Of a stretch of DNA of 64,000 bases, positions 5,573 through 61,916 are shown piece by piece. The number at the start of each line of letters is the position of its first letter. The stretch's first letter is position 1. The stretch lies in the IMG/VR virus record IMGVR_UViG_3300012983_001373, positions 39,621 through 103,620 of that record; one strand, 5' to 3'. The notes under the pieces were generated by a model. The model was given only the letters and a program-made list of their open reading frames with translations. It was not told the origin of the DNA and ran no database searches. Both the position numbers and the translations under genes were made by a program. This DNA is from a virus (Duplodnaviria; Caudoviricetes).

Positions 5573-5587
5573 CTATTTTATTATTAC
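5573..5587 (-). promoter_or_regulatory. Putative phage late promoter motif GTAATA-N6-TAG
   Basis: Minus strand GTAATAataaaaTAG, between a hairpin and the RBS. The same motif occurs at four other intergenic sites. Confidence 0.6.
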
Positions 5588-12055: not shown

Positions 12056-12070
12056 CTATTATTTAATTAC
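12056..12070 (-). promoter_or_regulatory. Putative phage late promoter motif GTAATT-N6-TAG
   Basis: Minus strand GTAATTaaataaTAG, just downstream of a terminator and upstream of the RBS. Confidence 0.55.
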
Positions 12071-31635: not shown

Positions 31636-31650
31636 CTAATTGTATATTAC
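31636..31650 (-). promoter_or_regulatory. Putative phage late promoter motif GTAATA-N6-TAG
   Basis: Minus strand GTAATAtacaatTAG, between a terminator and the RBS. Confidence 0.6.
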
Positions 31651-34600: not shown

Positions 34601-37600
34601 AATCTGATATTGCTGACATATTATAGAAGTTATCAAATAACTTCCAAGAACCAATCTTACGTCCTTCATCTATAAATGTTATATAATAAGTTGGGAACGC
34701 TCTAAGCAATCTACCACGTTTATCATTAATTAGCATATCATAAAAACTATGAAGTGTATAAGCCTGTACGTCTTCAGCTAAAGATGTATATGCTTCTTTA
34801 AGTATACTATTTAAAGCTTTTTGAGAATCAGAAGTAGTTGATGCTTCTGCTTTTTCTTTGATTTGTACGTTAGTCATATATCCTGCAGTAGCAGATAAGA
34901 ATTTAGCTAACACGCTATTTGTTCTATTTCCAAATACTATAGAAGTAGTTGTTAGACTATTCAATACATCAAATCTTCTACCTTCTAAATAACTTAAAGT
35001 AGTTTCATCAGGTCCCGAAGGCATATTTGCCGCAGCCTCTAATATAAAATAAATAAGTCTTGCACAAAAACTTTTAGAATAAGTTTCTGGAATATTATCC
35101 ATTATTGCATTTATTGTTTTAGCTTGATTTTCTGTTACTCCGTTTGTAACTTCTATTCTATCTTCGTCAACATTGTCATGTGCTTCTTCGTTAGCTTTTG
35201 TCCCTGGAATCAACCATTCAAAATAATTTGCGCCACCAGCAACTATTTTTCCTGTTCTTTGCCAAAAACTATCGTCAGCCCAGTCTTCTTGTGTTTCTTC
35301 CCATCCACCTTTAAGGAACTCCCACCAACTATGGTTTTCCTCTCCTAGCATAACGTTTTTAGTCTCATCCCAGTTATCTAATATGAAATCTATTTCAGAG
35401 AAATAATAGCCGTCTATAATTTGTTTTCTAAGATAAACTAAAGCAATTCTAATAAATGCTGCAGTATTTACACCATGGTCTTTACATATCTTAGTTTTAT
35501 ATTCTTTAAGTTCTGAAGAGTTAGCTGCTAGTTTATTGTAATAAGGGTCAATGAATCCATCTTTATAGTTATCATAGAACTTGAATGTATTAGAAGTATA
35601 TTGTACTTTACTTCTAGGAAGAATACGTTTTTTAATATCAGTAACAGCTTCTGATCTAATAGCAAACATACCAAATTCTTTACCATATTTAATAGCTGCA
35701 GATTCAGATTTAGCTTGACGACCGTCTGCTGTTTTACATCTAGGTAAGCCATTCTTATTAAATTGATTTGGTCCCCAATCAGAAACAGTATTCGCATCAG
35801 TTTTCGGTTCGTTACCTGATTGAGTACAAGCTGCCGCTAACAAGAACATAAATAAGAATCCTAATGGTCTAGGTTTATGGGCGTCTTCTTCCATTGCTCC
35901 AGTTGTATCCCACATCCAGTTTGCTCTAACACTCTTATCATAATCATCAATAGGACATAATAATTTTAATAGTTTGTTTCCTTTGTCATAATCTTTAAAG
36001 AAATCTTCTGTACATCTATTAAAGAATATCATTAACTCTTCTTCTTCATTTTGGAATAAATGATTGTATTCGCCACGAGAAAACTTTTTATAGTTTATAG
36101 GCTCTGCTAATATTGAATCAATTAATTCAATAGCTTCTTTTCTTTTCTTAAAGATTTCTTCAGCATATTGATTTGCTTTATCAGCAGCATCTGTTTTTGA
36201 AGTTGATAAGTTTGAACTACCGCATTTTTCAACTGCTTCATTTGTACAAGGAGGAGCCATAGTAGCAACGTATCCAGGTTGTATTTCCCATCCTTCTGTA
36301 GGGTCACATATAGTTAAGTAATACAACATATTTCCTATTTCAGCACTATCTTCGCTATATTTAATTTCGTCTCTAGCTTTGTTGCCTTTTTTAGGAACAG
36401 ATACTTTAGAGTCTGCCTCTATATTTGCCATAGCCTCATCATAAAGCTCAGCTAAGTCTCCTTGATTTATTATACTAAAACCAGATGTAGAAGTAACTTC
36501 AGTCGTAACTTCTTGACCTAATGTATCTGTAAATTTAACTTGACGTTTTTTATCTCCACCTTCTTTAACATCTTTTGTATGGAATAGATGTTTAGCAAAT
36601 ACTTCTTTGATATTCTTTTTAATTATTTTAGAAGTATATTCATATCCATAAATCATATAAAAATCTGGGTCAGGGAATATTCTTTCGTTTCCTGCATATC
36701 TAATAAAGCTATAACCTACATTCTTTAATTCTTTTAATAGAGGTAAATCTAAGTCTGGATATGTTTCTGCATTAGCAAGAGATCTCTCTATATCAAAATA
36801 AGAACTTATACCAGCATCTGATTTGTCTGTAGTTTGTTGATTACTTTGTAACTTTTGCATCATTTCTCTTTGTCTCATTGCTCTATCTACAGATGTAAGT
36901 CTCATTTTTATTTCATATAATCCAGGATAACCTTCTACTGTTTCAACAGCTATATTGTCTATAAGTACTTCATTTATACCTGCCATTTGTAAGTATTGAT
37001 TTTTAATTCTTATAGGCCAACATGAAAGAATTCTTCTATATGTTTTAGCTATGTTATATGCATGAGCTGGTAGTGTATTTAACATTGATACCGTTGTTTG
37101 GTCTTCTGTAATTATGCTTAATTCTATAGAAGTATCTGAAGAACCCATATATTGCGGAGCAGAACCGTCCATTATTTTTAATGATAATTCAGTGAATGTA
37201 TTTGTCAATCCTATTGCTAATCCGTTTAAAGGAACGCTTGTTATAAAAGGTCTAAATTTCATTGCAGCAGGATTAGTGTAGTCATATTCATTTGCCATTG
37301 TTTCATTAGTATCGTTTTGAGGTTGTCCATCATAAACATCAGATTGTCTTTTTAAAGTATCTGGAATTGATGTTCCTCCTGTTACTGAAATAGAAGTAAT
37401 TTTTCTATTGTTATCAAATTTAAGTAAAACATCTACTGTTATTTTATTGTCTTTAAATACATCTTTAATTGATTTAGCGCCTATTACATCTTTTACTGTT
37501 TCTTTTATATTTGCAAAATCTTGTTCTGTTAAAGTGCTTTTACTAAGATGAATATCAAAAGACCATTTTAAATTATTGTTTCCTTTTATATCTATTTGTT

Positions 37601-39998
37601 CTCTTAATACAACTTCTCTTACAGCGTTACTAGATAAAGCTGCATCTTCCATCTTCTTAAATAAAGGTTGTATATATGTATCTACGACTGTTTTGCCTCT
37701 CTCTATAACATTTGATTTTACATTCGTAGACTTACTTCCTAATACATTAGTTATTTCATATAGAATGACATTTTCCAGTTGTTGAATTTGCGGTATATAA
37801 CAATCTTTTTTCATCTTATTTATTGTCGCAGAATCAAGTTTTAATTTGTCTCCTAATTTAGCAAGGTCTTTTAACCAAGCTTTCGCTTCTTTAGATAATT
37901 CTATAGCCACTGGTTTTTGTCCATAATAATCCTCATCTTTTTTTGCACTTAATGCAACTTTTAACCAGTCTTCATCAGGTACATAGAATGAAATTTTATC
38001 AGAACCCTCACAAAACTTAACAGGCATTAATGCGGATTTTACTGTTGTGTTTTGTCCATTGTTTTTATTAAAATAATATGTTTCTAAATATTCTTGAGAA
38101 TTATAATCATATTTCTTTAATAAATTTCCTTTGTGAAGAAGTCTTTGATAATAATATCTGAATATCTCCCAATGAATACATTTAGCAAATATAGGATTCA
38201 TTTCAGATACTTCACTTACGTCTGCATCTTCATAATCAATTGGTATGTCTGGCATATAAATTCTATAATTGAAATCTCTTAATGTAAGAGTTGCTTTCAA
38301 TAATCTAGGATAACCATCAACAGTCCCCATATGAAAGTTAACAAGAGTTACTGCTTCTATACCTAAGACATCATTTATATATTGACTCTCTATTGGAAGA
38401 TAAGGAGTTAATTTAAATTGAGCAAGTAAGGCGCGTAACCCATTCATATAATAAGTTCTTTTTGAACCGTTTGGTAATGTTACTTCTGTAGGTATACCAT
38501 TAATACCATAATCATCATAAAAGAATAAATCTATTTCAAGATAATGTTCTCTAGGCCCCATACCTTTAACCATAGAACCTTTACCACGAAGAATGTTTAC
38601 TCTTTCATATTCAACATTAGAAACAGAACGTATGTTTGTAGGAGGTATTAAAAATAAAACATCTCCTAGCATCATAGTACAATTTCTAAATTTTTTAAAA
38701 TCTATACCTGTTATTTTTTTATGAAAAGCATTTCTTTCATTATATGATTTTTTAGATTGTTCTTCGAATGAATCAAGAAATTTTTGATTGTCTTTATCAT
38801 AAGATGGTAAATTAAAATCAGATGCTACGTTTCCATATATATTATTTAACTCTGCAGAGTCAGAGAAATCTGGATTACCTATAACATTATCATGGTTTGC
38901 TAATATATATTTATTTGCATTTATCCATACTTCTTTACCATTAACATTCTTCTTAACATATATCTCACCAAGAAAACGTCCTAAACCGTCTGTACCAAAT
39001 GGACAATAAGATAATCTACTTAAAGGAATATCACCTACAGAATCTTGCCATTGGTCAATCATATCTGCTACAGCTTTATGAACATTCCACCAGTGGTTAT
39101 AATACAGTTTATATTTACTAGAAGTCTTTGTTGCTTTAGTTCCATTTGCATCTAATTTAAGAACTATTTCAGATGCACCACTTAACAAATCTAATAAGTC
39201 GTCTTTTGCTTTATATCCATCTGCTATAGTTCCTTCTTCTGATTCATCTTTACTAGATAGAACTCTATAATAAACATAGCCTGACTTCTTATCAGAAGAC
39301 CCCAGATATTTATCCATAGATTCTTCTTTAGTTATCTCTACATAATTTTTTCCGTTTTTATATAGTTTAACTGTATCGCTGCTATTACGTTTAGACGCTT
39401 TACCGTTTTTGTAATTACAATTAAGAAGTATCGCATCTTTTTGTTTTGCTTCAGCATATGTCATAGTTACTATGTCTTCAGGTCTCATAGCCTGTATAGC
39501 AAAGTGAGGTATTTCAGGAGCATCTATACCAACACTTCTGACTACTAATGTATCTGCACTATTTGTTTTTATTAAATTAGCAATACAATAATCATCAAAT
39601 GAATTATATGTTTTACCATTTAATGTGAAAGAAAAACCTGTATCTAAAGAGCCGAAATCAAACTTCATTGTATCGCCGTCAGTCTCATTTAATATTTTTG
39701 ATCTTTCTTCATAATCAAATCCTTTACATTTAATATAAAATACTTTGTTTTCTGAGTCATATCCAGACTGCATCATTCCTGGCGGCTCCATATAAAATGC
39801 ATTCTTAACAGCATCATCTTTATTTCCGTCAGATATGTCTTTTAAAAAATCTGACATTAAATCATCGTCCATCATTTCTTCTAATGTAGGGACAGTATCA
39901 GATATATCAAGGTCATCATAATCTTTTCTTGACTCTATCATATCTTTATATTTATCAGAAAGAGCTGCTCCAGTAGTGCCTGAATTATTTGTTGCCAC
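31692..39998 (-). CDS. Giant baseplate hub (gp27/GpD-like) protein with an N-terminal thermonuclease (SNase) domain and a late hydrophobic segment
   Basis: 2768 aa, GTG with AAAGGAG RBS. SNase motifs DGDT (aa107), RSVGIDAPE (aa154) and DGLGRFLGEIY (aa337). Hub-like PGIRIHVRMGY...VFNGKIAEV and IGDPSVKPYD...EVEGVVYSM..TGFTTTI. Upstream of the spike, gp25 and J genes. Confidence 0.7.
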   Translation of the reverse strand: MATNNSGTTGAALSDKYKDMIESRKDYDDLDISDTVPTLEEMMDDDLMSDFLKDISDGNKDDAVKNAFYMEPPGMMQSGYDSENKVFYIKCKGFDYEERSKILNETDGDTMKFDFGSLDTGFSFTLNGKTYNSFDDYCIANLIKTNSADTLVVRSVGIDAPEIPHFAIQAMRPEDIVTMTYAEAKQKDAILLNCNYKNGKASKRNSSDTVKLYKNGKNYVEITKEESMDKYLGSSDKKSGYVYYRVLSSKDESEEGTIADGYKAKDDLLDLLSGASEIVLKLDANGTKATKTSSKYKLYYNHWWNVHKAVADMIDQWQDSVGDIPLSRLSYCPFGTDGLGRFLGEIYVKKNVNGKEVWINANKYILANHDNVIGNPDFSDSAELNNIYGNVASDFNLPSYDKDNQKFLDSFEEQSKKSYNERNAFHKKITGIDFKKFRNCTMMLGDVLFLIPPTNIRSVSNVEYERVNILRGKGSMVKGMGPREHYLEIDLFFYDDYGINGIPTEVTLPNGSKRTYYMNGLRALLAQFKLTPYLPIESQYINDVLGIEAVTLVNFHMGTVDGYPRLLKATLTLRDFNYRIYMPDIPIDYEDADVSEVSEMNPIFAKCIHWEIFRYYYQRLLHKGNLLKKYDYNSQEYLETYYFNKNNGQNTTVKSALMPVKFCEGSDKISFYVPDEDWLKVALSAKKDEDYYGQKPVAIELSKEAKAWLKDLAKLGDKLKLDSATINKMKKDCYIPQIQQLENVILYEITNVLGSKSTNVKSNVIERGKTVVDTYIQPLFKKMEDAALSSNAVREVVLREQIDIKGNNNLKWSFDIHLSKSTLTEQDFANIKETVKDVIGAKSIKDVFKDNKITVDVLLKFDNNRKITSISVTGGTSIPDTLKRQSDVYDGQPQNDTNETMANEYDYTNPAAMKFRPFITSVPLNGLAIGLTNTFTELSLKIMDGSAPQYMGSSDTSIELSIITEDQTTVSMLNTLPAHAYNIAKTYRRILSCWPIRIKNQYLQMAGINEVLIDNIAVETVEGYPGLYEIKMRLTSVDRAMRQREMMQKLQSNQQTTDKSDAGISSYFDIERSLANAETYPDLDLPLLKELKNVGYSFIRYAGNERIFPDPDFYMIYGYEYTSKIIKKNIKEVFAKHLFHTKDVKEGGDKKRQVKFTDTLGQEVTTEVTSTSGFSIINQGDLAELYDEAMANIEADSKVSVPKKGNKARDEIKYSEDSAEIGNMLYYLTICDPTEGWEIQPGYVATMAPPCTNEAVEKCGSSNLSTSKTDAADKANQYAEEIFKKRKEAIELIDSILAEPINYKKFSRGEYNHLFQNEEEELMIFFNRCTEDFFKDYDKGNKLLKLLCPIDDYDKSVRANWMWDTTGAMEEDAHKPRPLGFLFMFLLAAACTQSGNEPKTDANTVSDWGPNQFNKNGLPRCKTADGRQAKSESAAIKYGKEFGMFAIRSEAVTDIKKRILPRSKVQYTSNTFKFYDNYKDGFIDPYYNKLAANSSELKEYKTKICKDHGVNTAAFIRIALVYLRKQIIDGYYFSEIDFILDNWDETKNVMLGEENHSWWEFLKGGWEETQEDWADDSFWQRTGKIVAGGANYFEWLIPGTKANEEAHDNVDEDRIEVTNGVTENQAKTINAIMDNIPETYSKSFCARLIYFILEAAANMPSGPDETTLSYLEGRRFDVLNSLTTTSIVFGNRTNSVLAKFLSATAGYMTNVQIKEKAEASTTSDSQKALNSILKEAYTSLAEDVQAYTLHSFYDMLINDKRGRLLRAFPTYYITFIDEGRKIGSWKLFDNFYNMSAISDLTVTKTRKMPADTCMFTMSNMFASYANAYDNTTREQYVDTYTIKDVFTSIFSPKTYVKKEDAIRIRKEIGDTVVLQPGIRIHVRMGYGANASKLPTVFNGKIAEVDVGDVVSIVAQGDGHELMNPLNALGEADATNIIESQSWTTLFKDLRGSMARGGLTPRNLLVQLLTAQHGGVFKTVARDWSSGRFYSDNPFGIFHFGDRRFRDIFEESELVQNLYEVVDGTLLAGVNELYPSETNTQIAPTVNTNLQDKTFWDVLQLCAYCGHGYIGAIRDFGFRSTVFLGKPNHYYAFKYNMKDGKYVEKRKPFQQFHYYDSYTDIVYNSIKASEKNMKTNATGIWEGSDWLWWGQESKTVGPMYLDINIYPEYQKSMTVDTRLVGVGNGGIDIPFITYFSEEWNMDAETNKVNKSLAERVTMNALRESVMGMYVGEICVIGDPSVKPYDRISINDAYEDMVGQMEVEGVVYSMNAQTGFTTTIYPDVIVRSEDGHEGARQSCFGGVSASCVAAVGTRLAIIEKLARIDSKLLRAAAGVISKYMAAGATESAAVAALGSGPVAGLLPAPAVAGGSFKTAISSIVGSISGTALVSTAALAAVIYVAGKNAKSYITRWIRNTQVLDVYPVFKNQRPLIAGMAGHKGSVVGYDYSEEDAKDSVQGMIASCVGWLDDSLWGGGKYLTNLFVDRDEYNKTLLNWSNTLTTLNVDQEYLENVESKGQTEALLQDLYGEVSKDFSGRSATIQTLKTKYRLATLDTKKGSDPTYKRYENLFISPYKLTNEERIKTATDTTGKSKYNITSIYSNKNVLDLYPIEDDPDIKKAVAGSHPVVKRLTIAHSQGNVKVTLPFESGSRIIRYMGVDNYTKNNALASFPIMDLPMIQEDALYVLKLILNDEHLKKKEVAFLSGARLNDPNTWKNTGFWFVISSDDATALENAVKSIQSAIYWTKNGSRKEVFTYKMSGDKCMINVYPEV

Positions 39999-40053: not shown

Positions 40054-43000
40054 TTAGAAATAATCATTTAATACGTTTTCTATATCTTTGTCGTTGTATC
40101 CTCCTGATCTAGAAGTTTTAATATTCATATTAACATTTACGCCGCCACCAACAGAACTATTAGCTACTTGTTTTAATGCTTTCTTTAATTGTCTGTTGCC
40201 TTTCTTTGTATCTCCATTTATATTGATAATATATCCTCCAGTATTATTAGGAGTCATTTCAGGCGGTGGAGTACTTCCAAAGTTAAGAGGTGGATTCTTT
40301 TGAGTTTCTTGTGTTATTGTTTCAGCGTTAGCGTCATTTAATGGGTTCCCTGATGCATAACCAGCAATAAGTAATCCTGAAGCTAATCCTAGAACACCCA
40401 TTGCCATATTCTTACCAAGTGAGCCAGAACTGTTCATTACCATTTTCGATATGTTATTACCAACTACTTCGCTTAAAGCTTCAACAGTTTGTCTACTTGT
40501 TAAGTTATCAGCAGCATCTCCCATTGCTCTTTTGATATTATCTTGTGCAATTTTTTGTTCGTTCTCTACAGCACGTTGGAAGTGAGTATTATGTGATTTA
40601 GATGTTTTTTGCCATGTAGCCATTTCTATTGCTTTACCCATCATAGTAGAATCTGTATCGAACATACCTATAGCATCTTCTAAGACAGAATCATAGTTAC
40701 CACTTCTACCGAACTTACCAAATGAATCAATCATACTTCTTGTACTTGGACTAGCTTTTCTATCTAATAAGTGTCCTGATATATCTATGTATTCATTTAT
40801 CATGTATTGTGCTTTTGCTGTTTTATCAGTTAAGTCCATACCAGATACTTGAGTAGCTAGTTCGTCATATTTATCTGCCAGTTTACCTTCGTCAATGTAT
40901 TGAGTCATCCAGTTATGTAACAATTCTCTATTTGTATATTCGCCTTGAACTTCTGCATGTTCTAAGCCTTGTTTCTTGATTCTAGAGAATATGTCTCCGA
41001 ATTCTATTAGTCTATCGTCTCCTGCTTTGATAGCAACCTTTTTAGAAGATATAGGTGCTTGTTCAAATTCATCTGCAACTTTAGAAATTATTGCTGACTT
41101 TCTAAGGTCAAACATTTCGCTGTTTGGATTACCATAATAAGCTTTAGCTGTTTGAGTTATTCCGTATAATGTACTGTTGACATTACCAGTTGCCGCTATA
41201 CCTGTTTTAGACATAGCTTCTGATAAGTAGCCACCAATTTTTAAACGTTGAATAGCTGCATTTTGAGCGCCTTCCATAACTGCATCATCAATACCTAAAG
41301 AATTTAGATTCATATCTTTTAACTCTTGCATAGCCATAAGAGCTTGGTCAAGAGCTTTACCTTCGTTCTTCATTGCAAGTATATTATCTGCATCTCCAAA
41401 CAATTCAGAGTATTTAGATTTGTCTGCTAGTAAATCTCCACTTTGTCTTACTATACCAATCATTTGATTAACAAGTTTTTCGTTATCAGCAACTTCTGCA
41501 AATGTAGGGTCATGTGCTAATGTACTTAAAGTTATGTGTCCTAATATAGAGCCTCCACCATCTACTGCAGATACTACACTTTTTCCTCCTCTTGATATTG
41601 CTTGAGCAGATAATACTTTTTCATTATCTCCCAATACCTTATCAAGAACTTTAGTATTATAATATCTATTTACTCCAGTAGCATCTTGAGCCATTTTAGT
41701 ATCTATACGTTTAAATACATCATAAACTTCTTCATCAAATCCATTGGCAATTGTTTGCTCTCTAATATAAGCTTCTCTTGCATCTCTAGTATCAAACTGC
41801 ATATTGCCCATTGTACTAATAGTTTGTTCTCTAGCTAATTCATATTCTAAATGATTAACGCCTTTATGTTCTACCATAAATCTAGAAACAGAGTCACCGT
41901 CTGAGTCAGCATTCATTTTTAATGCTGTTATCGGAGACATTAAAGTGGCATTTGGCGCTTGAACTGTATCATTTAAATAATGTCTAGTTGATACTAAAGA
42001 ATAATCTCTGATGTTCGGATAACGGTCATCTACCATTACTGTACCTTTAGTTTTTAAATGCTCTATCATTTCGTCTTTAGTCATACCTAATTTATCTAGA
42101 TAATCTTGGTCGAAGAATCCTCTTTTCTCAAATGCTTCCATTGAGTCAAAAGAATAATCTATATGAATACCTTGTTCAGTTAACTCTGCTAAAGTCTTAC
42201 CTTCAAATGTAGCTTGTTGTAATAAAGGATTCTTAGATGTATTCATTGTAGTTAAAATTTTATTTCTGTCCGTAGCTACATATATACGTTGTTGCGCAAT
42301 TTGATGAGCAGCAGTATTTTTATTAGTAAACTTATTAAGTGATTCATTTATTTCATCTATTGTATTTATTATATTTTCTTTTAATTGTGGAGCAAGTTCT
42401 TCGTTACCATGTACAGCTTGATAGTCTTTATATTGGTCAGCTAGTCTACCTGCTAGTTTGTGCCAATCACGTTTAACTTCCCCTTCTGGTAGTTCTATTC
42501 CCATACCAGGAATAGCTACATATTTATAAGTACCAAAATCATCTCCTAAGTTAAGAAGCGTATTTTGTTTAACCATTGAATCATAAGTAGCAGAAGAGCC
42601 ACTACCAAATGTATTAATATATTCCGATGGACTCATTTCTGTGAATCCCATGTCTATCATTTCATCAACAGTTATTGCTTGATTTAGATTGTTAAAGTTT
42701 TTAGCTTTTGAAATACTTCTCATGTCATACATTTTTTGAGCAGAATCAACGCCTAGTTCTGGTGCTAATTGCTGTTCTGTAAAAGCATCATACACTTCTT
42801 TAAGATGTTTATATTTATCTTGCTTTAACATATCTTCTGTTAAAACATCTTCTGTAAGAGGATTATAATAAACTTGGTCTTCTAATTGTTTTCTAAGGAA
42901 TCCAAACGTATTAACTTCATCGCCAGTATCATCTAATGCACCTATTGCAGTTATAGTTTCTTCTAGCTCTTTTCTTCTAATAGGGTCAGCTTCATTTAAC

Positions 43001-46000
43001 ATCTTATCTATGTTTTCTTTAGCCATATCCCTATCTATAACATAAGAAGATCTTAAAGTGTTTAACTCTTGGTCTCCTAATTTCATTAAATGACCTGTTT
43101 CTTCTAAATCACGTACCTTATTTTTTAAATCACCTATTCTAACATTATAATCGTCTATCATAAGCTGAGCCATGAAGTCTCCTTCAGGAGCAGCATTATT
43201 TTTATCTATATATTGTTGTCTTTCAGCTTTTAGTTCTTTTATTTTTTTAAGAACATCTACATACTCATTAGTCATACCAGATTGAGTTTCAGGGTCAATA
43301 ACAATACGATTGCCTGCAGCACCCATAGGAAGTATAGTATTGTCTTTATCTCCTACATACCACATACGTCCTATTATCTCTTCTACTTCACCTGCGTTTT
43401 TACCGTGTTTTATTTCTCTCTTATGAACAAATCTGTCTTGCATAGGAGCACCTTGTTGTCCTAACCATTCATCAGCTTCACGGAATAACGCTTCTAATGT
43501 ATCTGTATCTACTGTATCTCCATTTATGCTTTGGTCAAATAATTGTCCATTCTCAAACATTAAATGTCCGTTGACATTGAATAATTTTTTACCTTGAGTT
43601 TTAGGGTCAACACCTGCTTCTCTAGCTGGTTTAAAGAATTGATATTTGTCGTTGTACATTTCAACGAATTTATCAAGACCTAATTTACGAGTTTCAGCGT
43701 TTTCTACTTTTTCATCAGAACTATACTTACCAAGCATAGCTACAAGTTCATTAAGAGAACCAACCATCATTGTACCTTTGTTACCATGGCCTGATATATT
43801 ATCGTTCCCTATAGCTGCTATACCAGGAAGAACACCTTTTTTACCAAATAACATTTCTGTTAATACATAACTTTCTTCTTGTGCAGCTTCGAATAACTCA
43901 TCTATAGTTTTGAATCCACCTGCTTTAAGAGCGTCCATAAGTCTTTCTTCGTCTTTAAACATTGCTTTAAATGCTTGTGGAGTTGGAGTAACGTTACCTA
44001 TTAATTCTTGAGGTATACCGCCATAAGCATCCATGACTTTAGCTATATCTTCATTTAAGTATCCCATTCTTATACGTGCTAAATGGTTCATAGATTTTTC
44101 TGATTCATCTATAAGTATTTTAGGAAGAGTAGTCTTATTGATATCTTCTATAGTATAAGCAGCTTTTAATCCTTCTTTTTCAAAGATATCCATCGCTCTA
44201 CTCAACATAGAGTTACGGTTGTTTATATCAACATCTTTGAACATACCTATGTTTTTATTAAGTACTTCAGTTATTTGTTTATCAGAAAGTCTTACGCCTT
44301 CTTCACTACGTACAGTAAATTCTAATAAACCATGATTCATTTTATTAACCCAATCAGTTGTACCACCACCGAATTGAGCATAAGGTATAACATCTTCACC
44401 ATGTTTTAAAATTTCTCCCGTTACAGAAGTATATTCTAATACTCCTTCTGGAGACATTTTTACATTTCCTAATAAATTATAAAGACGCTCATATTTATCG
44501 TTAAGTATCTTTTGACTTTTAATATTCTCAGGTAAACCTATATTAATAAAGTCTTTACCTTTTGATAATGTTTGCACATTAGCTGCTATTGTTCCACCAG
44601 TAAGTTCATCAAACATTTTGGCATTGAATACCTTTTGTTGTTCAAATGTATTCATTATAGAATACGCCATTTCATAAACGTTTTTCTTTTTAGCTTCTGT
44701 TAAGAAATCCCAATTGTTTTCTCTTAATACTTTATCCATATTTGTGTCAAGTAAAGCTTCTATACCTGCTTGTCCTGTGTATAAAGTACGAGCTGTAAAT
44801 GTAGATGTAAGCTCTCCTATTCCTGCAACAGATGTATAGTTAATTACTTTGTCTTGTGCAGATTCAAATAATGCACCTTTATAAAATAAAGTATCTGCTT
44901 TGGCAGCAACTGCATCAATTGCTTCAGATGCTAAATAATAAGTATGACCTGCAGCAGTATGTTGTGGACGTCCCCCATTTGAGAATGCATTCATTAAACC
45001 AGTTTCAAATCTTAGTCCAGCGCCCATAGTAATTCTTCTTGAATAATTAGATTTATCTTTAGATGCACTGTTTAAGAAAGATGCTATGAACTTAGAATCT
45101 TCAGTACCTGTTTGACTCATTTCTCTTACTATTTGAGGCCAATAACTACCTATAAGATTCATAACAGCAGGGTCTAAATCTCCTGGTTCTAATGTTTTAC
45201 CACTTAACTTAGTACTAAGTAATTCTTTTACATTGTCAGGTAGTTGTAATTGTTCACCTATATGTCTAAGGCTACCGTTTTCTCCAAATATTTCTGGTAG
45301 TAATTTATCAAGATTATTTGTTTGTACTTTATAGTTGGCTAAATGATCACCTGGAGTATATTCATATCCAGCTTGTTGTAGTATGTCTTTACCAACTTTT
45401 TTACTATATCTTCCAAACGTAGCTATATCAAATTCTCCATTTTTTAAATCTCTTTCTAATCTTCTAGTTACTGCTTTATTAGAATGAGATAATTTCCCTA
45501 AGTTAGTCGTTACAAATGAATTCCCATTACTATCCCAATCCATTACAGGCATAAGACCAAACTCTTGATTTCCTACTTTAGCAACTAAACTTTGACCTTG
45601 CAAATGAACTTTAGGTATATGTTCAAAATCAATAGCTTTGTCTCCATATTTAAAAGCCAATTCTCCATTTCCACCTATAATCATTCCTCCGTTAGGAACA
45701 ACAGAACCAGCTTTTATTATATCAAATAATTGATTAGATATATCTTCTTCTACCTTGTTGTATAAAATAGTCTTATGTTTCTTTTGTATAAAGCCTAGAC
45801 CATCTATAGCTTTTTCGTATTCTGCTCTGTCTGGCATATAGTGTCCTAATACATTTGTTTTAACAAAAGCCATAAGTTTTTTATCAGACATTTTTGATAT
45901 ATCTTTTTTTCTATTAGTACTAGCGATTATTTCAGATATAAAACCTTCTCTTTTTCCTATACCATTTAAAGCGATATTGAAGTTTTCATCTACGACTTCT

Positions 46001-49000
46001 AAAGAAAAAATATTTGATTCTTTAATAATACCTTTAGACATATTCTTTTCTTTCTCATAAGCCATAGCTTTTACTACGTCTAAAGCAGTATTGGAAACGT
46101 TAAAATCTCGTGTGTTTTCAGTTATTTCTCGTGCGGCTTTTTCTAAATAAGGATTATCGTTTATATCAAAATCTTCACTCTTAACAAGAGTTCTTATGAA
46201 TTGAGCAACAGCATCTCTTTCATAAACTTCTGGATTTTGAGATAAATCTAAATCGCCATATCTTTGTTTAACAAGTTGTTTTACTAATGTAAATTGTTCA
46301 TTGTTTCTTTTCGTATTAACAGTGATTACATTACTATAATCATTCACATTAGACATAGTAAGAACTTGATTAACCTTAGATCTCTCTAATGCAAATTCTT
46401 CAGGTAGTCTAAATTCATATCTCTGTTTAAGATTATAAACTGTGTCATGTGCAATAGAAGAATTAGTTGCAGCTCTCATTAGTTTGACAGGGTCATCTTT
46501 ATACATTTCTTCTGCAACTCTAGCTTGTGCTGTTTCAACTACTTGTAAGAACATTTCGTTCTGCTCAGCAAATGTAAGATTGTGTTTAGTTGCATACTCA
46601 GATACTTCTTTAGTAACTGCAGCATAGAAATCTTTACGGTCGCTCATATATTCATAAGCAGTTGCAGCAGGTCTAGCCGTATTAGAAGAGATTTTAGTTT
46701 TGCCAGTTTTTTTATCTTTAAAGCCGTATAAATCTTGTAAGATTTTAGCAGCTTCTTTTAATTCATCATCGTCAAAACTCTTAGGAGATTGAGTTAGTAA
46801 ACTTACAATGTCTTCTGCATCAGCATTCTCTCCAAATTTTTTAGTGATATACTCATGTGCTTTTAAGAACTTTTTAGTATTATGATATGCTTTTTCTCCT
46901 CTTAAATACTTATTTCTAAAACGGTCAGATGCAAGAGTGGATGAACTTTTTGTAGTTGCAAGATTAACTAACTCTTCGTCAGTAAACTTGTTTCCTATTA
47001 TACCAACCATTCCATCTTGAACAACCCCTACATTTAAGATGTCTCTAGCCTCGTCTCCTGTTACTTTCCACTTACCAGCCCCACCTTCTGCTACCATTGT
47101 TAGGTTAGCTATAAAGGCAGATACATCGTCTTCTGATGCAAAGTTTTGTACATATAACATATCGTCATAACCTTTACCTGCATTCTGTCCTACAGCCAAT
47201 CTCATATGAACTTGGAATAATTCAGGGCCACTTAATTCAGGTACAAGTCTACCTAAATCTTCAGGTAGGTCTTTTGTATTAATTTTTTTAATTGCTTCTA
47301 TTGTATAAAATTGTCCTTGATTTAATTCTGTCCCCATGTAAAAATTATCTTTTACTGCAGGAGCTAAATTATCAAGATTCATTTTATAATTTGAACTGGT
47401 AAAGACTTCCCCAGTTACAGGATTGACTGTGTAATTAAATAATCCTTTACCTTGGAAATCACGTCTAGTACCTTTTCTAGCATAGAATAATTGTTCGCCA
47501 GGTTTTATTTCTTTACTGTCAAAAGTTAAACCTTGTAAGCCTACGCCACCTGCATCAGTCATAAAATAATCAAATAATGATTCATATTGTTTACCATTGA
47601 CTTCTATGCTTCTAGTAAATACATCTTCAAGTACTAATGTATCGAAGTCTGCCATGTGAGCAATACCGTCTTCAAAACGGTCTTTGAACCAAGCTTCACC
47701 TATATACTCTTGCCCAGATGTTTTACCTTTTGCCTTTTTAATTATACCAGCGTCATTATTTAATAATGTTTCTGTACCAAACGCATTTTTAATAGCATTA
47801 AATACAGGAAGAGAGTCCAGGAAGTTATCTTTAGGAACACTAAATCCAACTTGCCCTCCAAATGCCTTCTCATAATGTTCTACTATCTGTTTAGCTTGAG
47901 AAGAAGTAACGCCTAATAAATCTCTGTATGTTCTATCTAGAGTTTCTTGAGATGCCATTTTATAACCATACATCACTCTACTTAACTCTGTGTTCATTAC
48001 ACGCATATCGAAAGGTCCATGGTTTTGACCAATAACCATACCTAAATCTGCTTTACTCATATTGTTCATTTCTATAGTAGCATCCATTAAAGCAGCTATC
48101 GAATTCTTAACTCCCATATCGTTTACTGGAGTTGTGTCGTGTACTTTTCTTAACTTCTCCCAACCTTCTTTAAAATTCTCTAAACTTAAAAAGTCTTCTG
48201 CATTAACATCAGATAAACTTTCCATAACATAATAACCCTTTTGAGGATCTAGTTTAACTACTGTGCCTTTATGAGAATAAAGAGCCATACGAGATGCAGT
48301 GACACGATATTTTTCATTAGCCATGATTGCATCAGTATCGCCTTTTTCAAGTAGTTTAACAATATCATCATAAAGCTTTTTGTTCTCAGGTGTTTCTTGT
48401 ATCCCTAAAACTATATTTGTATTTTTAATATCTTTAGTTTCAAGATTTATATCTCTCATAGAGAATTCTGTTATACCAGACGGATCCCATACACCTGATT
48501 GGTTTTTACCACCGATAGTTTCTGTATCGAATATATATAAATGTCTACCACCAGGATTCTTTTTAAATTCTTTTAACTTTTCATATTTTTTATTTACATC
48601 TACAAGAGAAGCTGTTAAGCCTACTTGTTGATTAGACCAAGCAAATGTTTTAGATACGTCTTCAGTATTTATAAGTCCAGCGTATACATCAAAGAATCCT
48701 CTTGATTGTAATTGTTGAACTAATTTAGAGATTCTTTTATCTTCTACATTTACTCCGCCTATTGGATTTATTTTTTTAGTATTTATAATATCTATGCCAT
48801 TACCATCATATAGATTTATTGACTTAGGTTTAAATATATCTTCCATTTCTTCTTGATAATTAAGAACGTTAGTAGCTTTTTTAGGAGTTGTTCCTTCCAT
48901 ATTCTGCTTACGTATTTCTGCAGCCTGTTTTACTTTACGTTGTAAGGTAACAGGATTTAAAGGAGCATTAGTAAATTGTTTCTTTTTATTATAACGAGCC

Positions 49001-49002
49001 AA
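40054..49002 (-). CDS. Putative virion-associated single-chain two-barrel RNA polymerase with an N-terminal DEDDh 3'-5' exonuclease domain
   Basis: 2982 aa, TTG with AGGTGGTGA RBS. Beta'-like R2327YP and N2364ADSDGD. Beta-like H1739GNKG or K1628-x7-K1636. Exonuclease motifs FD159TE161T, QNHGPFD332 and AH449MADFD454. C-terminal hydrophobic helix. Confidence 0.75.
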   Translation of the reverse strand: MARYNKKKQFTNAPLNPVTLQRKVKQAAEIRKQNMEGTTPKKATNVLNYQEEMEDIFKPKSINLYDGNGIDIINTKKINPIGGVNVEDKRISKLVQQLQSRGFFDVYAGLINTEDVSKTFAWSNQQVGLTASLVDVNKKYEKLKEFKKNPGGRHLYIFDTETIGGKNQSGVWDPSGITEFSMRDINLETKDIKNTNIVLGIQETPENKKLYDDIVKLLEKGDTDAIMANEKYRVTASRMALYSHKGTVVKLDPQKGYYVMESLSDVNAEDFLSLENFKEGWEKLRKVHDTTPVNDMGVKNSIAALMDATIEMNNMSKADLGMVIGQNHGPFDMRVMNTELSRVMYGYKMASQETLDRTYRDLLGVTSSQAKQIVEHYEKAFGGQVGFSVPKDNFLDSLPVFNAIKNAFGTETLLNNDAGIIKKAKGKTSGQEYIGEAWFKDRFEDGIAHMADFDTLVLEDVFTRSIEVNGKQYESLFDYFMTDAGGVGLQGLTFDSKEIKPGEQLFYARKGTRRDFQGKGLFNYTVNPVTGEVFTSSNYKMNLDNLAPAVKDNFYMGTELNQGQFYTIEAIKKINTKDLPEDLGRLVPELSGPELFQVHMRLAVGQNAGKGYDDMLYVQNFASEDDVSAFIANLTMVAEGGAGKWKVTGDEARDILNVGVVQDGMVGIIGNKFTDEELVNLATTKSSSTLASDRFRNKYLRGEKAYHNTKKFLKAHEYITKKFGENADAEDIVSLLTQSPKSFDDDELKEAAKILQDLYGFKDKKTGKTKISSNTARPAATAYEYMSDRKDFYAAVTKEVSEYATKHNLTFAEQNEMFLQVVETAQARVAEEMYKDDPVKLMRAATNSSIAHDTVYNLKQRYEFRLPEEFALERSKVNQVLTMSNVNDYSNVITVNTKRNNEQFTLVKQLVKQRYGDLDLSQNPEVYERDAVAQFIRTLVKSEDFDINDNPYLEKAAREITENTRDFNVSNTALDVVKAMAYEKEKNMSKGIIKESNIFSLEVVDENFNIALNGIGKREGFISEIIASTNRKKDISKMSDKKLMAFVKTNVLGHYMPDRAEYEKAIDGLGFIQKKHKTILYNKVEEDISNQLFDIIKAGSVVPNGGMIIGGNGELAFKYGDKAIDFEHIPKVHLQGQSLVAKVGNQEFGLMPVMDWDSNGNSFVTTNLGKLSHSNKAVTRRLERDLKNGEFDIATFGRYSKKVGKDILQQAGYEYTPGDHLANYKVQTNNLDKLLPEIFGENGSLRHIGEQLQLPDNVKELLSTKLSGKTLEPGDLDPAVMNLIGSYWPQIVREMSQTGTEDSKFIASFLNSASKDKSNYSRRITMGAGLRFETGLMNAFSNGGRPQHTAAGHTYYLASEAIDAVAAKADTLFYKGALFESAQDKVINYTSVAGIGELTSTFTARTLYTGQAGIEALLDTNMDKVLRENNWDFLTEAKKKNVYEMAYSIMNTFEQQKVFNAKMFDELTGGTIAANVQTLSKGKDFINIGLPENIKSQKILNDKYERLYNLLGNVKMSPEGVLEYTSVTGEILKHGEDVIPYAQFGGGTTDWVNKMNHGLLEFTVRSEEGVRLSDKQITEVLNKNIGMFKDVDINNRNSMLSRAMDIFEKEGLKAAYTIEDINKTTLPKILIDESEKSMNHLARIRMGYLNEDIAKVMDAYGGIPQELIGNVTPTPQAFKAMFKDEERLMDALKAGGFKTIDELFEAAQEESYVLTEMLFGKKGVLPGIAAIGNDNISGHGNKGTMMVGSLNELVAMLGKYSSDEKVENAETRKLGLDKFVEMYNDKYQFFKPAREAGVDPKTQGKKLFNVNGHLMFENGQLFDQSINGDTVDTDTLEALFREADEWLGQQGAPMQDRFVHKREIKHGKNAGEVEEIIGRMWYVGDKDNTILPMGAAGNRIVIDPETQSGMTNEYVDVLKKIKELKAERQQYIDKNNAAPEGDFMAQLMIDDYNVRIGDLKNKVRDLEETGHLMKLGDQELNTLRSSYVIDRDMAKENIDKMLNEADPIRRKELEETITAIGALDDTGDEVNTFGFLRKQLEDQVYYNPLTEDVLTEDMLKQDKYKHLKEVYDAFTEQQLAPELGVDSAQKMYDMRSISKAKNFNNLNQAITVDEMIDMGFTEMSPSEYINTFGSGSSATYDSMVKQNTLLNLGDDFGTYKYVAIPGMGIELPEGEVKRDWHKLAGRLADQYKDYQAVHGNEELAPQLKENIINTIDEINESLNKFTNKNTAAHQIAQQRIYVATDRNKILTTMNTSKNPLLQQATFEGKTLAELTEQGIHIDYSFDSMEAFEKRGFFDQDYLDKLGMTKDEMIEHLKTKGTVMVDDRYPNIRDYSLVSTRHYLNDTVQAPNATLMSPITALKMNADSDGDSVSRFMVEHKGVNHLEYELAREQTISTMGNMQFDTRDAREAYIREQTIANGFDEEVYDVFKRIDTKMAQDATGVNRYYNTKVLDKVLGDNEKVLSAQAISRGGKSVVSAVDGGGSILGHITLSTLAHDPTFAEVADNEKLVNQMIGIVRQSGDLLADKSKYSELFGDADNILAMKNEGKALDQALMAMQELKDMNLNSLGIDDAVMEGAQNAAIQRLKIGGYLSEAMSKTGIAATGNVNSTLYGITQTAKAYYGNPNSEMFDLRKSAIISKVADEFEQAPISSKKVAIKAGDDRLIEFGDIFSRIKKQGLEHAEVQGEYTNRELLHNWMTQYIDEGKLADKYDELATQVSGMDLTDKTAKAQYMINEYIDISGHLLDRKASPSTRSMIDSFGKFGRSGNYDSVLEDAIGMFDTDSTMMGKAIEMATWQKTSKSHNTHFQRAVENEQKIAQDNIKRAMGDAADNLTSRQTVEALSEVVGNNISKMVMNSSGSLGKNMAMGVLGLASGLLIAGYASGNPLNDANAETITQETQKNPPLNFGSTPPPEMTPNNTGGYIININGDTKKGNRQLKKALKQVANSSVGGGVNVNMNIKTSRSGGYNDKDIENVLNDYF

Positions 49003-49016
49003 TATATCACCACCTT

Positions 49017-49030
49017 CTAATACATATTAC
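49017..49030 (-). promoter_or_regulatory. Putative phage late promoter motif GTAATA-N5-TAG
   Basis: Minus strand GTAATAtgtatTAG, directly before the RBS of the RNAP-like gene. Confidence 0.55.
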
Positions 49031-49035
49031 ACAAT

Positions 49036-49065
49036 AAGAAAAGGGCACAACTTGCGTTGGCCCTT
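49036..49065 (-). terminator. Intrinsic terminator with a GCAA tetraloop
   Basis: Minus strand AAGGGCCAAC-GCAA-GTTGTGCCCTT followed by TTCTT. Confidence 0.8.
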
Positions 49066-49069
49066 AAAT

Positions 49070-49552: not shown

Positions 49553-52500
49553 TTATTGAACTGTCCAACCTTTTTCTATTGCTATTGCTAATTGATCGTC
49601 TGAAAGTTTTGCTAAGTTTTCTTCACCTATAAATAACTTTTTAACGCTGAATGTTTTTACTAAGTTGTTGAATATAGAAAGTAAAGAATCTACTGATAAA
49701 TTAATACAATCATCTATATAGAATAATGTATCATTTATATTTTTAAATGAAATAAAATCTGTTAGCCATTTACAGTTATAGAATATACCTGCATAACCGA
49801 AGTCTACATTTATAACATCCCAAGCTGATAAATCTATTGTTCTTGTTGCATCTGATTCTACATTCCAATGATGAGCAAACATAAATGCTACACTTTGTAA
49901 ACTTGCTATATTCCAACTATTAAAGAATGAGTAATCTGCTAAACGGAATCCTCCGAACATATAACTCATGTCTTTTACATTGCGAACATCCCAATTTTTT
50001 ATAGCAGAACCATCTTTGCTTGTAGAATCATTGTAACCATATCCTCCAACAGCATAGAACATAGAGTTCATATTAGTAACACTAGATACATCCCAATCTT
50101 CTAATCCTGCAAGTGTCGTTATTTTACTTTCACCTTCAACACAGAACATATGTTTCATAGTTGTTACTTTTGAAGTTTTCCAATTCTTTAACGGAGTTAA
50201 ATTAGAAAGCTTTTTACATTCATAGAACATATAAGCCATATCTGTTACATTCTCTGTTTCAAAATTAGCTAAACCACTTATGTCTTCAAGTTCAAGACAT
50301 CCTCTGAACATACCGTTCATATTATAAACATTCTTTGTAGAATATGATTCTAAAGCGCTTATATCTTTTAAACTACTCCATCCTGCAAATAATTCTTTAA
50401 AGTTTAAACCGTCAATAGAAGACCAATTTGCTTTATTGAATATAGGAATTAATAAGTCTAAAGATTCTAATCTTGATTGACAACCTAAAATATCAATTGA
50501 AGGTATTTCTACAAATGTATCACAGATTAGCTCTACTTGAGAGTCAGTTAAATTCACATTATTAAATAATTTACTCATAGATTTTACTTTAGTTGTATCT
50601 ATCTTAGATAAGAAAGCAAATATAGCATCAAAGCTTAAAGAAGAACAATTATAGAATGCTTTGCTTATGTCTGTAACATCTACAGGTTCTAAACTATCTA
50701 AACCTATTATATCTGTAACATTAGATGCTCCATAGAATAAACCTGACAAGTTTGCTCCTATAATCATATCAGTAACATCTAGAGTAGTAAGTACGTCACA
50801 GCTAGCAAAGATATTGTCTCTATTAACTACTTTGGAAGTATCCCATCCATTCATGCCAATTGATTGTAATACTTGACAACCATAGAACATAGATGACATA
50901 TCCGTTACGTTAGAAAAATCCAATTCTTCCAATCCAATAATATCTGTTAAGCTATACATTAAATAGAATGCTTTACTACAAGTTTCTAATTCTACTCCTA
51001 CTAGATTAGTTAAATCAATAGAAGTAACATTATTTAAACCTACGTTATCATTATTAGTATAAGTATTTCTTATACCACGAGCATTAGAATCACATTTATA
51101 ATCCGCAGGAATTTCTGTTATTTTAGTTATTGAAATACCTTCTCTAGAATTTAATTTTGGCTTCTTAAGTTTTACAGTATACACTCCATGCTCGTCATAA
51201 GTATGTCTACATAAATAAGTTCCTGATGATAGTGAGTTGGCAACTGTTAAATCATCTTCTCTGCCATCTCCCCATAAAACAGCACCTTCATTTGATACTG
51301 TAAACGATACAGTTAAAGATTCTAATAGGAGAGTATCTATTACAACTTCTAAAGTATCTTCAAATTTAAATGCTAATCCTCCCCAGTTTTCAGGAATAGA
51401 TGTAACTCTATCTTTTACTCCATCTATTTTATCTATATTAACACCTGTATAGCAATCTATATGGTTTTCTCCTAAATCAGTATATTCTTTGTTCCAGTTA
51501 GATACTATTTCTTTCATTCCTGCACAGTTTTTAAAACACTCTGTAACATTAGTTGCCCATATAGGGAATTCTATATCTTTATATAATGAAGAGCAGTTTC
51601 TGAACATTCCTGAAAAATCTGTCATTTCTTCTTTTATATCTGTCATAATTATTTCTTTTACTTTACTGTTTCCATAATATGAAGAAGTATATAAGAAGCT
51701 ATTTACTTGTTTAGGATATCCCCAAGTTATATTATTTAATACAATAGTTTTTTCAACAGTATTTCCCCATAAGTTATTAGGTGTGTTATTGAAATTAGAG
51801 AAATCCCAACCAGATAAATCAAAGTATTCCATTGGTACAGAATAGAATAAACCATTAACTGTACGTACATTCTTTGTGTCCCAAGTATTTAAACCAATTA
51901 TATTTTTTAATGCTATACAATTATAGAACATATTATCTATATTAATAACATGACTGTTAACTAAATTAGAAACATTTGCTGTTTGTAATAATTGACAATC
52001 ATAGAATAAATTTCTTAAAGAATAAACTATATCACTTTCTTCATCGTTATTTAATTTCCATCCGCTTAAGTTTATTTCTTTAACTTTAGTTCTTGCGAAT
52101 ACTGAATATATAGATGTACAAGAAGTTAAATCCCAATTTTCAGCTCCTGTAAAATCAGTTATACCAGAACCATCAAATGTTGATTCTAAAAATTCTAAGC
52201 CTGATGTATCCCATAGATTCATACCTGATAAAGCTGTTAATTTTGGACAATTGTAGAATACAAAACCTAGTTCTTTACATACATTATGAACTTTAAAGTT
52301 TTCTACTGTATCTAAAACTTCACAACCTGAGAATGTATTATTAAATACAGTACATTGAGATAAGTCTCCAAACTTAATTGTTTTAAGTTTTTTATTATCT
52401 ATAAACGTTCTAGATAAATCAGTTGGAATACCACATGTAAAATCAACATATTCTAAGTTTTTACAATCACTGAACATATTAGTATAATCAATAGGTGTAT

Positions 52501-61901: not shown

Positions 61902-61916
61902 CTAATTATTTATTAC
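61902..61916 (-). promoter_or_regulatory. Putative phage late promoter motif GTAATA-N6-TAG
   Basis: Minus strand GTAATAaataatTAG, downstream of the terminator at 61944-61970. Confidence 0.55.

Follow-up and report, generated by a model that had tools for sequence, protein, structure and literature searches.

A giant tail-module phage protein combining a predicted two-barrel RNA polymerase core with a DnaQ-like exonuclease: a candidate virion-delivered polymerase

The minus strand of a 64,000-nucleotide stretch of viral DNA (the window; positions 39621-103620 of record G000, the linear IMG/VR contig IMGVR_UViG_3300012983_001373) encodes, among tail and baseplate genes, a protein of 2,982 amino acids (aa) that we call P0001. 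Structure prediction and residue conservation suggest that this single chain joins a DEDDh (DnaQ-like) exonuclease, a middle region of about 1,000 residues, a two-barrel RNA polymerase (RNAP) core, one membrane-like helix and a conserved tail. The core is modelled with a polymerase fold, its catalytic residues are fully conserved, and P0001 is in all likelihood an active two-barrel RNAP. With more reserve, we also think it probable that this exonuclease and polymerase giant is made late together with the tail proteins, packaged at the tape-measure position or as a substitute for the tape measure, and expelled on infection to transcribe the first genes that enter the cell.

The reading frame (40054-49002) is uninterrupted across its 2,982 codons, and translation together with a motif scan bore out both this open reading frame (ORF) and the motif positions on which the original prediction was built. 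AlphaFold2, supplied with a 48-sequence alignment, gave for aa 1450-2649 a model with a predicted local distance difference test (pLDDT) of 82.3 and a predicted template-modelling (pTM) score of 0.78. When this core model was searched against the PDB with Foldseek, the best 50 rows were all RNAP beta-prime chains (E from 7e-5, probability 0.89-1.00). The match to beta-prime chains covers model residues 658-1200, the alignments extending to the end of the core model, and QDE-1 is matched as well, as the closest structure. Among BFVD entries, the best matches were giant phage proteins, either unnamed or called 'minor tail protein' (E 6e-10 to 5e-5), followed by many viral RNAPs. In two separate structure searches, the non-helical part of the core matched RNA polymerases only. 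We take the QDE-1 alignment range on the model to cover both barrels, so that the order along P0001 would be a first double-psi beta-barrel (DPBB-B) bearing the lysines, a helical connector, a second barrel (DPBB-A) bearing the DxDGD motif, and a long helix. Single-subunit two-barrel RNAPs show this same order of DPBB-B, connector and DPBB-A (PMC10770324). The model and its structural matches support the arrangement first proposed from the sequence, namely both barrels in one chain, the beta-like one ahead of the beta-prime-like one.

In two-barrel RNAPs, an aspartate triad DxDxD comes from one barrel and two basic residues come from the other (PMC7824862). The triad of P0001, NADSDGD, is found in the second barrel, between model strands 903-906 and 922-927. 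It is preceded by R2327-Y-P2329, the R-x-P loop of this barrel; in QDE-1 the corresponding loop of DPBB2, called the Pro-gate loop, touches the 2'-OH of the nucleoside triphosphate (NTP) (PMC9508822). With 36 residues between P2329 and D2366, P0001 passes the sequence filter [RK]xPx{20,100}DxDxD used for two-barrel RNAPs (PMC10770324 Suppl. Data 4). Conservation was counted over 83 full-length members of the family, aligned with MAFFT and reaching down to about 23% identity. R2327, P2329, D2366, D2368, G2369 and D2370 are all invariant in this alignment (83/83), which upholds the proposal, made from the single sequence, that NADSDGD and RYP are catalytic motifs, and the DxDGD and RxP signatures are thereby conserved in every full-length relative. 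E1454, K1628, K1636, H1739 and K2654 are likewise found in 83/83 sequences.

The original prediction had hesitated between two lysine motifs for the beta-type basic pair, and only the first of them stood. In KILIDESEK, K1628 and K1636 are invariant (and E1635 is present in 81/83), model strands 179-182 and 186-192 place them in a beta-hairpin within the N-terminal barrel region, and their spacing of eight residues is the same as that of K979 and K987, the two lysines of Rpb2 that bind the product (PMC9508822). From this conservation, spacing and secondary structure we infer that KILIDESEK, rather than GHGNKG, provides the beta-type pair. The other motif, HGNKG (aa 1739-1743, 43774-43788), was rejected for this role, K1742 being a lysine in only 39 of the 83 sequences and an arginine in 9; it is located in a low-confidence loop of the core model. 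To judge from the alignment, this loop is nevertheless functionally constrained, its histidine being invariant and its asparagine nearly so (80/83).

Two further elements of the core were considered. A long helical hairpin lies between the barrels and has structural matches to generic helical hairpins only; its place in the connector makes it a possible clamp-type coiled coil (PMC10770324). After DPBB-A, where a bridge helix or trigger loop was sought, model helix 1124-1174 contains a conserved ATGNVN..G..Q..K block, with a pLDDT of only 43-58.

The question arises as to whether motifs and fold could be misleading, P0001 being an inactive relic, or another barrel fold with a metal-binding loop and no polymerase activity. 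A word-indexed search retrieved 48 relatives of 2,833-3,096 aa. HMMER, run exhaustively over 1.84 billion representatives (clusters at 50% identity), found only 80, most of them about 3,000 aa long and matched along the full 1,200 residues queried, the remainder being shorter entries; the relatives are metagenomic and none has a name or a Pfam domain. Pfam and PHROGs, queried with the whole protein and with five sub-ranges, returned sub-threshold noise only. Searches of PDB sequences by phmmer and by hmmsearch with a family profile gave nothing but carbonic anhydrase and apolipoprotein noise. With tblastn, the whole protein matched none of 50,697 phage records, and a single-sequence scan of viral contigs was equally empty. 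The Pfam RdRP/YonO-like family PF05183 had no match on P0001, nor elsewhere in the record at E <= 1. Family sub-alignments compared by hhalign with E. coli rpoB and rpoC were non-significant (prob < 3%), although the rpoC alignment paired ADSDGD with ADFDGD. In the absence of any sequence-level link to a named RNAP family, the polymerase assignment rests on predicted structure and motifs, and a relic would be in keeping both with this silence of the profile methods and with evidence that depends on a predicted model. Against it, the catalytic positions never vary in 83 sequences spanning about 23-90% identity, as selection for catalysis would lead one to expect, and the two independent structure searches with the non-helical part gave RNA polymerases only. 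We therefore hold this scenario to be very improbable, and return to P0001 as a polymerase.

The N-terminal part of P0001 carries a second enzymatic domain. Its motifs are ExoI FDTET (D159 and E161; from aa 158), ExoII GQNxxPFD (D332) and ExoIII H449-x4-D454. The model of aa 1-1200 has a pLDDT of 86.8 and a pTM of 0.82, and Foldseek, with weak E-values, gave high probability to TREX2, TREX1 and a DnaQ domain. P0001 thus combines an RNase H-like exonuclease fold with the DxE of ExoI, the D of ExoII and the H-x4-D of ExoIII. Because all five catalytic residues (D159, E161, D332, H449, D454) are invariant in 83/83 sequences, the domain is very likely active. It filled the Foldseek lists obtained for aa 1-1200, among whose rows the confidently folded aa ~630-1200 of the middle region had no match.

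This exonuclease may serve the polymerase by trimming, rescuing or editing the 3' ends of RNA, or its target may be the nucleic acids of the host. In cellular RNAPs, editing takes place in the active site itself, and full-text literature searches revealed no described two-barrel RNA polymerase with a DnaQ-type exonuclease in the same chain. A bolder version, to which we give little credence, would make the DEDDh domain a same-chain nuclease for 3'-end editing and backtrack rescue or, more radically, would have the module synthesize DNA, or RNA and DNA, in the manner of PolD, with an enzyme of ~330 kDa threaded through a contractile tail where it replaces the conventional tape measure. If same-chain 3'-end editing were true, P0001 would be the first case in which a two-barrel RNA polymerase has a proofreading-type exonuclease as a domain of its own.

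The presence of two enzymes in a tail-module protein also raises the possibility that transcription is not their purpose. In that case P0001 would serve mainly as a tape measure or channel former, a tail protein that is structural or ejected. Its exonuclease could degrade host DNA or RNA, and its two-barrel module could make primers, double-stranded RNA by QDE-1-like RNA-dependent synthesis, or even DNA as PolD does, with the exonuclease proofreading. QDE-1, the closest structure, does have DNA- and RNA-dependent activity (PMC9508822), fusion of a DEDDh exonuclease to a polymerase is a hallmark of proofreading DNA polymerases, and the neighbouring giant, with its PHROG 'endolysin' match, may also bear enzyme domains. 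However, the invariant R-x-P loop, which in QDE-1 contacts the 2'-OH of the NTP, favours ribonucleotides, the record already has pieces of Pol III alpha and a DnaG primase, and the exonuclease is separated from the polymerase core by about 1,000 residues. For these reasons we tend to exclude a mainly structural role with enzymes unrelated to transcription, which we regard as improbable, and continue with P0001 as a transcriptase.

The genomic setting points to the tail. As had been noted from the sequence, the gene lies in a tail and baseplate module behind a recurring promoter-like motif, and this placement was confirmed by PHROG matches of the surrounding genes (tail protein, tail fibre, gp25-like and gp6-like baseplate wedge) and by the GTAATATGTATTAG copy of the motif described below. 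Directly downstream, a 2,768-aa giant (31692-39998, minus) matches PHROG 20474 'endolysin' over aa 1742-2324 (E 1.6e-164) and, below threshold, Pfam DUF6046 (22.7 bits for a cut-off of 27.4); it is probably a hub or spike protein with cell-wall-degrading domains. By gene order, P0001, immediately upstream of this hub-like giant, is in the slot where contractile-tail phages keep their tape measure, and no conventional tape measure, nor any other candidate for one, was recognised within the window. The order is identical in a relative 82% identical to P0001: a CotH/DUF285 giant, a 155-aa gene, P0001, a 2,774-aa giant, two small genes, and a 171-aa gene (gp25-like). In a relative only 26% identical, the P0001 homolog is followed by a 3,000-aa giant (faint DUF6046), two small genes and a sheath-initiator gene; a sheath-initiator match for this gp25-like slot was obtained only in this distant relative. 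This 26%-identical homolog, P0048 (L006, a logan SRR14722434 contig of 62,834 bp), is translatable only if TGA is read as tryptophan, and at least one branch of the phage group therefore uses, or infects hosts that use, genetic code 4.

The gene starts with TTG, six bases downstream of the ribosome-binding site AAGGTGGTGA, and GTAATATGTATTAG (49017-49030) is sandwiched between a hairpin with T-run and this ribosome-binding site. The motif, GTAATW-N5-6-TAG, occurs five times in the window (5573-5587, 12056-12070, 31636-31650, 49017-49030 and 61902-61916, all minus), each time on the coding strand, in a short intergenic gap, past a hairpin and 10-25 nt ahead of a ribosome-binding site. Over-representation had to be rejected, with five copies observed against 7.0 in shuffled sequences; only the placement is notable. 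A phage-specific late promoter is plausible on this basis, and the motif, ahead of P0001 and four other late units, may be the promoter for whichever enzyme reads the late genes. A further near-match (AGTAATAATTAAATAG) is present just left of the window, at 39075-39145 of the record.

The C-terminus of P0001 has features of its own. A Kyte-Doolittle scan detected a single membrane-like hydrophobic segment, aa 2866-2884, with a mean of 1.6 (next best segment 1.17); GYASGNPLND, which flanks it, is nearly invariant, and the tail that follows is the most conserved block of the entire protein. We would, tentatively, see in this tail a docking site in the phage tail or baseplate. For the C-terminal 343 aa, the ESM Atlas gave no match at 0.9 or above, and a Tape_meas_lam_C cluster at rank 20 (0.85) is a mere lead.

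Cultured phages provide a distant link. A relaxed tblastn search with the DxDGD region pointed to gp095 of the jumbo Bacillus phage vB_BceM_WH1 (LC597490.1; L008:8181-15728), encoded in its tape-measure region, with an E-value of 0.9, and hhalign placed RYPNIR..ADSDGD of the P0001 family onto RYPTIN..ADHDGD at 1941-2004 of the 2,515 aa of gp095 (prob 55%, E 1.2e-4). The family hidden Markov model (HMM) is collinear with gp095 in three places: the exonuclease motifs (FFDIENIG, GQNINTYD), the DxDGD barrel (21.5 bits), and ISSKK with the hydrophobic helix and C-terminal strands. We thus regard gp095 as a distant collinear homolog, shorter than P0001 (2,515 aa), with exonuclease, RxP..DxDGD, ISSKK, helix and C-terminal strands in the same order. 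Its gene is preceded by two tail chaperonins and one giant, and followed by another giant and baseplate J. The depositors labelled gp095 'virion structural protein', with no polymerase annotation; it has homologs in phages Edson and vB_BauM_KLEB27-3, the copy of the latter being labelled 'structural protein'. To judge from these sequence matches, the WH1-type homologs and their labels lend weak independent support to a virion location of P0001. Were P0001 confirmed, annotations such as 'tape measure' or 'virion structural protein', as for WH1 gp095, would deserve notice because they may conceal polymerases. ORF146 of Bacillus phage 0305phi8-36 (L010:12624-20237) was also considered as a homolog and rejected, having neither a DxDGD motif nor an HMM match, and it gives no support here. 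This 'hypothetical tape measure protein', verified in virions by mass spectrometry, has an ExoI-like YLDIETTG at aa ~1222.

The gene position, the C-terminal membrane-like helix and the distant Bacillus homolog annotated as a virion structural protein are the reasons why we infer packaging, and we consider virion delivery rather probable, by analogy with P23-45 gp96 (PMC10770324). P0001, which carries its own copy of the late-module motif, would be produced late, alongside the tail proteins, and become part of the virion at the tape measure or as a replacement for it. On tail contraction it would be expelled through the contractile tail, anchor at the membrane via its C-terminal helix and, held there, transcribe the first phage genes to enter. 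A small YonO-like non-virion polymerase, the host RNAP, or both would then take over.

Several observations weigh against this account, some of them on the polymerase and others on the virion. Since nothing beyond the core aligns, TM-scores in Foldseek stay low (0.11-0.15). K1628 and K1636 are assigned to DPBB-B by conservation, spacing and secondary structure rather than by residue-level superposition, and no sequence method, whether Pfam, PHROGs, phmmer and hmmsearch of the PDB, or hhalign with rpoB and rpoC, ties P0001 to a named RNAP family. Both modelled halves are compact and globular, unlike a classical all-helical tape measure, and about 330 kDa would have to fit in, or pass through, a tail tube. 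The presence of P0001 in virions is deduced from context; WH1 gp095 is only weakly linked to it by HMM (best stretch 21.5 bits, hhalign prob 55%), and gp095 itself is placed in virions by its depositors' label. Finally, the record, ~39% complete, says nothing on a second polymerase in the source phage, and those relatives in which one exists share only 25-28% identity with P0001.

Another possibility is an active two-barrel RNAP that is not packaged at all, but made late and acting in the infected cell, for instance as the late-gene transcriptase for GTAATW-N5-6-TAG, its location among tail genes being incidental. The fold and the active site hold regardless of packaging, the location in the virion is itself deduced, and the late-module motif is not sigma-70-like, so that it needs some reader. 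On the other hand, the slot upstream of a hub-like giant and a gp25-like or sheath-initiator gene is kept down to 26% identity, and a soluble transcriptase needs neither the membrane-like helix nor the conserved tail. A reader of late promoters encoded only behind a late promoter is moreover impossible, unless the first copy comes with the virion, and the separate small polymerases of complete relatives are better candidates for the late-gene task. An unpackaged polymerase therefore seems unlikely to us, and packaging at the tape-measure position is the reading that we retain.

These small polymerases came to light in a profile scan of viral contigs, which yielded eight relatives of P0001, four of them in records of 242-265 kb that are 92-100% complete, one with terminal repeats. 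Since the record studied here has a CheckV completeness of 39% for its 103,620 bp, and distant relatives with the same giant gene measure 242-265 kb, it is probably a fragment of a jumbo phage of roughly 260 kb. The P0001 family belongs to contractile-tailed phages of 240-265 kb, with a probable genome size of ~260 kb for the source phage. Each of the four near-complete relatives (25-28% identical to P0001) contains small ORFs with KxP followed, 55-65 residues later, by DFDGD or DTDFDG. In four loci these frames run to about 650-800 aa, in G003 to about 1,550 aa, and one of them has a weak Pfam RdRP match (E 0.002). No ORF of this kind was found in the 103,620 bp of the record studied here. 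They are candidate non-virion RNA polymerase partners of the tail-module giant, and suggest, by analogy with P23-45 and the phiKZ group, that the P0001 lineage possesses a pair of virion and non-virion polymerases. No paralogy can be claimed between the two, the hhalign comparison of the P0001 polymerase core with the small ORFs being non-significant (prob 1.2%). PF05183, PF00940 and PF00623 had no match in the record itself, absences that mean little given that it is 39% complete and that the PF00940 control matched nowhere. A match to sigma-70 region 2 in the record was dismissed as noise (E 0.099).

To our knowledge, virion-delivered two-barrel RNAPs have been shown experimentally in a few groups only: jumbo phages of the phiKZ/AR9 type, crAss-like phages, and Thermus phage P23-45. 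The closest known case is gp96 of P23-45 (PDB 8H2M/8H2N; Chaban et al. 2024, PMC10770324), a virion two-barrel RNAP fused to a tape measure. In gp96, the RNAP is at the N-terminus of a 5,002-aa protein from a non-contractile long tail, whereas in P0001 it occupies the C-terminal half of 2,982 aa, in a phage with a contractile tail. Moreover, gp96 has a metallopeptidase, no exonuclease and no clamp, while P0001 has an N-terminal DEDDh exonuclease and the long helical hairpin in the connector. No sequence similarity was detected between the two, and P0001 does not follow the gp96 layout, in which an N-terminal RNAP precedes a long tape-measure part. According to its description (bioRxiv 10.1101/2020.03.07.982082), phi14:2 gp66 (PDB 6VR4), from a crAss-like phage, is likewise a giant single-chain two-barrel RNAP, delivered with the virion, that transcribes early genes. 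It is capsid or tail cargo of a podovirus, with a DFDxD motif and no exonuclease, in contrast to the contractile tail, DxDGD and exonuclease of P0001. 6VR4 was absent among the PDB matches listed for the core, and crAss-like proteins of the BFVD matched weakly (E 7e-3 and weaker).

Other two-barrel enzymes are smaller. QDE-1 and plant RDR2 (PDB 7Y7P, 2J7N, 7W82) are eukaryotic RNA interference polymerases of about 1,000-1,400 aa, without exonuclease or membrane anchor; QDE-1 has a glutamine at the first lysine position (PMC9508822), whereas P0001 keeps both lysines, like Rpb2 and beta. P74 gp62 (PDB 8F5M), the gp64 RNA polymerase (PDB 8F72) and SPbeta YonO are free-standing proteins of about 600-850 aa, in contrast to the tail-module giant. 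The small ORFs of the relatives are closer than P0001 to the non-virion RNAPs of the P23-45 type, YonO being compared by description only. Single-chain two-barrel virion RNAPs are thus already known (crAss-like gp66, P23-45 gp96), and the P0001 family differs from them in sequence, in domain order and in its fused exonuclease; full-text literature searches found no paper on an exonuclease-fused or tail-module RNAP other than that of P23-45. The relatives of P0001 would constitute a further, unnamed family of different architecture, with a DnaQ-type exonuclease, fully conserved, on the polymerase chain itself. If our reading is true, tail-delivered polymerases would be a recurrent solution rather than a Thermus oddity, and P0001 would offer a testable case of a very large enzyme passing a contractile tail.

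Table 1. Positions of the P0001 gene, its predicted domains and motifs, and the small ORFs of relatives (window coordinates, except in the last line)
Feature	Position	Strand	Basis or remarks
Whole gene: predicted exonuclease / two-barrel RNA polymerase / membrane-anchor protein	40054..49002	minus	open frame, 2,982 codons; TTG start behind ribosome-binding site
Upstream control region: hairpin + T-run, GTAATATGTATTAG, ribosome-binding site AAGGTGGTGA	49003..49069	minus	read directly in the sequence
Predicted DEDDh (DnaQ-like) 3'-5' exonuclease, aa ~140-480, with insertions	47563..48585	minus	motifs ExoI, ExoII, ExoIII
Middle region, aa 481-1449	44656..47562	minus	alpha/beta, confidently folded up to aa 1200 in model
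Predicted two-barrel RNA polymerase core, aa 1450-2649	41056..44655	minus	AlphaFold2 model + Foldseek
KILIDESEK, aa 1628-1636; proposed beta-type (DPBB-B) basic pair K1628/K1636	44095..44121	minus	both 83/83, E1635 81/83
GHGNKG, aa 1738-1743	43774..43791	minus	H1739 83/83, N1741 80/83; K1742 is K in 39/83, R in 9/83
Long helical hairpin between barrels, aa ~1906-1971	43090..43287	minus	model helices 463-488 and 494-518
R2327-Y-P2329, R-x-P loop of the beta-prime-type barrel (DPBB-A)	42016..42024	minus	R and P 83/83
NADSDGD, aa 2364-2370, putative metal-binding aspartate triad	41893..41913	minus	D2366, D2368, G2369, D2370 each 83/83
Sole membrane-like hydrophobic segment, aa 2866-2884, MAMGVLGLASGLLIAGYAS, Gly-rich	40351..40407	minus	Kyte-Doolittle scan
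Conserved C-terminal tail, aa 2885-2982: NNTGGYIINI..KGNRQLKKALKQ .. DIENxLNxYF	40057..40350	minus	family conservation
Small YonO/RdRP-like ORFs of relatives	L021 (G002), L022 (G003), L023 + L025 (G001, two copies), L024 (G004)		motif KxP..DFDGD or KYP..DTDFDG

Regarding the rest of the record, the window falls within its minus-strand structural module, and a replication module on the plus strand comprises UvrD, SNF2, DnaG, NrdD, the Pol III alpha pieces and a 1,795-aa lysin. The 103,620 bp, which represent 39% of a genome, showed no recognisable gene for capsid, portal or terminase. Upstream of P0001, a 2,690-aa giant (49553-57625, minus) carries CotH, LamG-like, LRR and PKD domains and many DUF285 repeats. 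The gene before it (57663-60029, minus; 788 aa) encodes a calcineurin-like metallophosphatase with a purple-acid-phosphatase N-terminal domain and a sub-threshold similarity to a lamin-tail domain. Neither is an enzyme usually met in a tail module. In the early module, the intergenic stretches L001:1007-1206 and L002:4693-4852 share a long, structured-looking sequence (..GTAATC(A/C)GA..GAAGGCTA..AGTCAG..GCAACGCATAG..CCACGAGGC..), and a tRNA-Thr (GGT) is located at the end of this module (L002:13070-13144).

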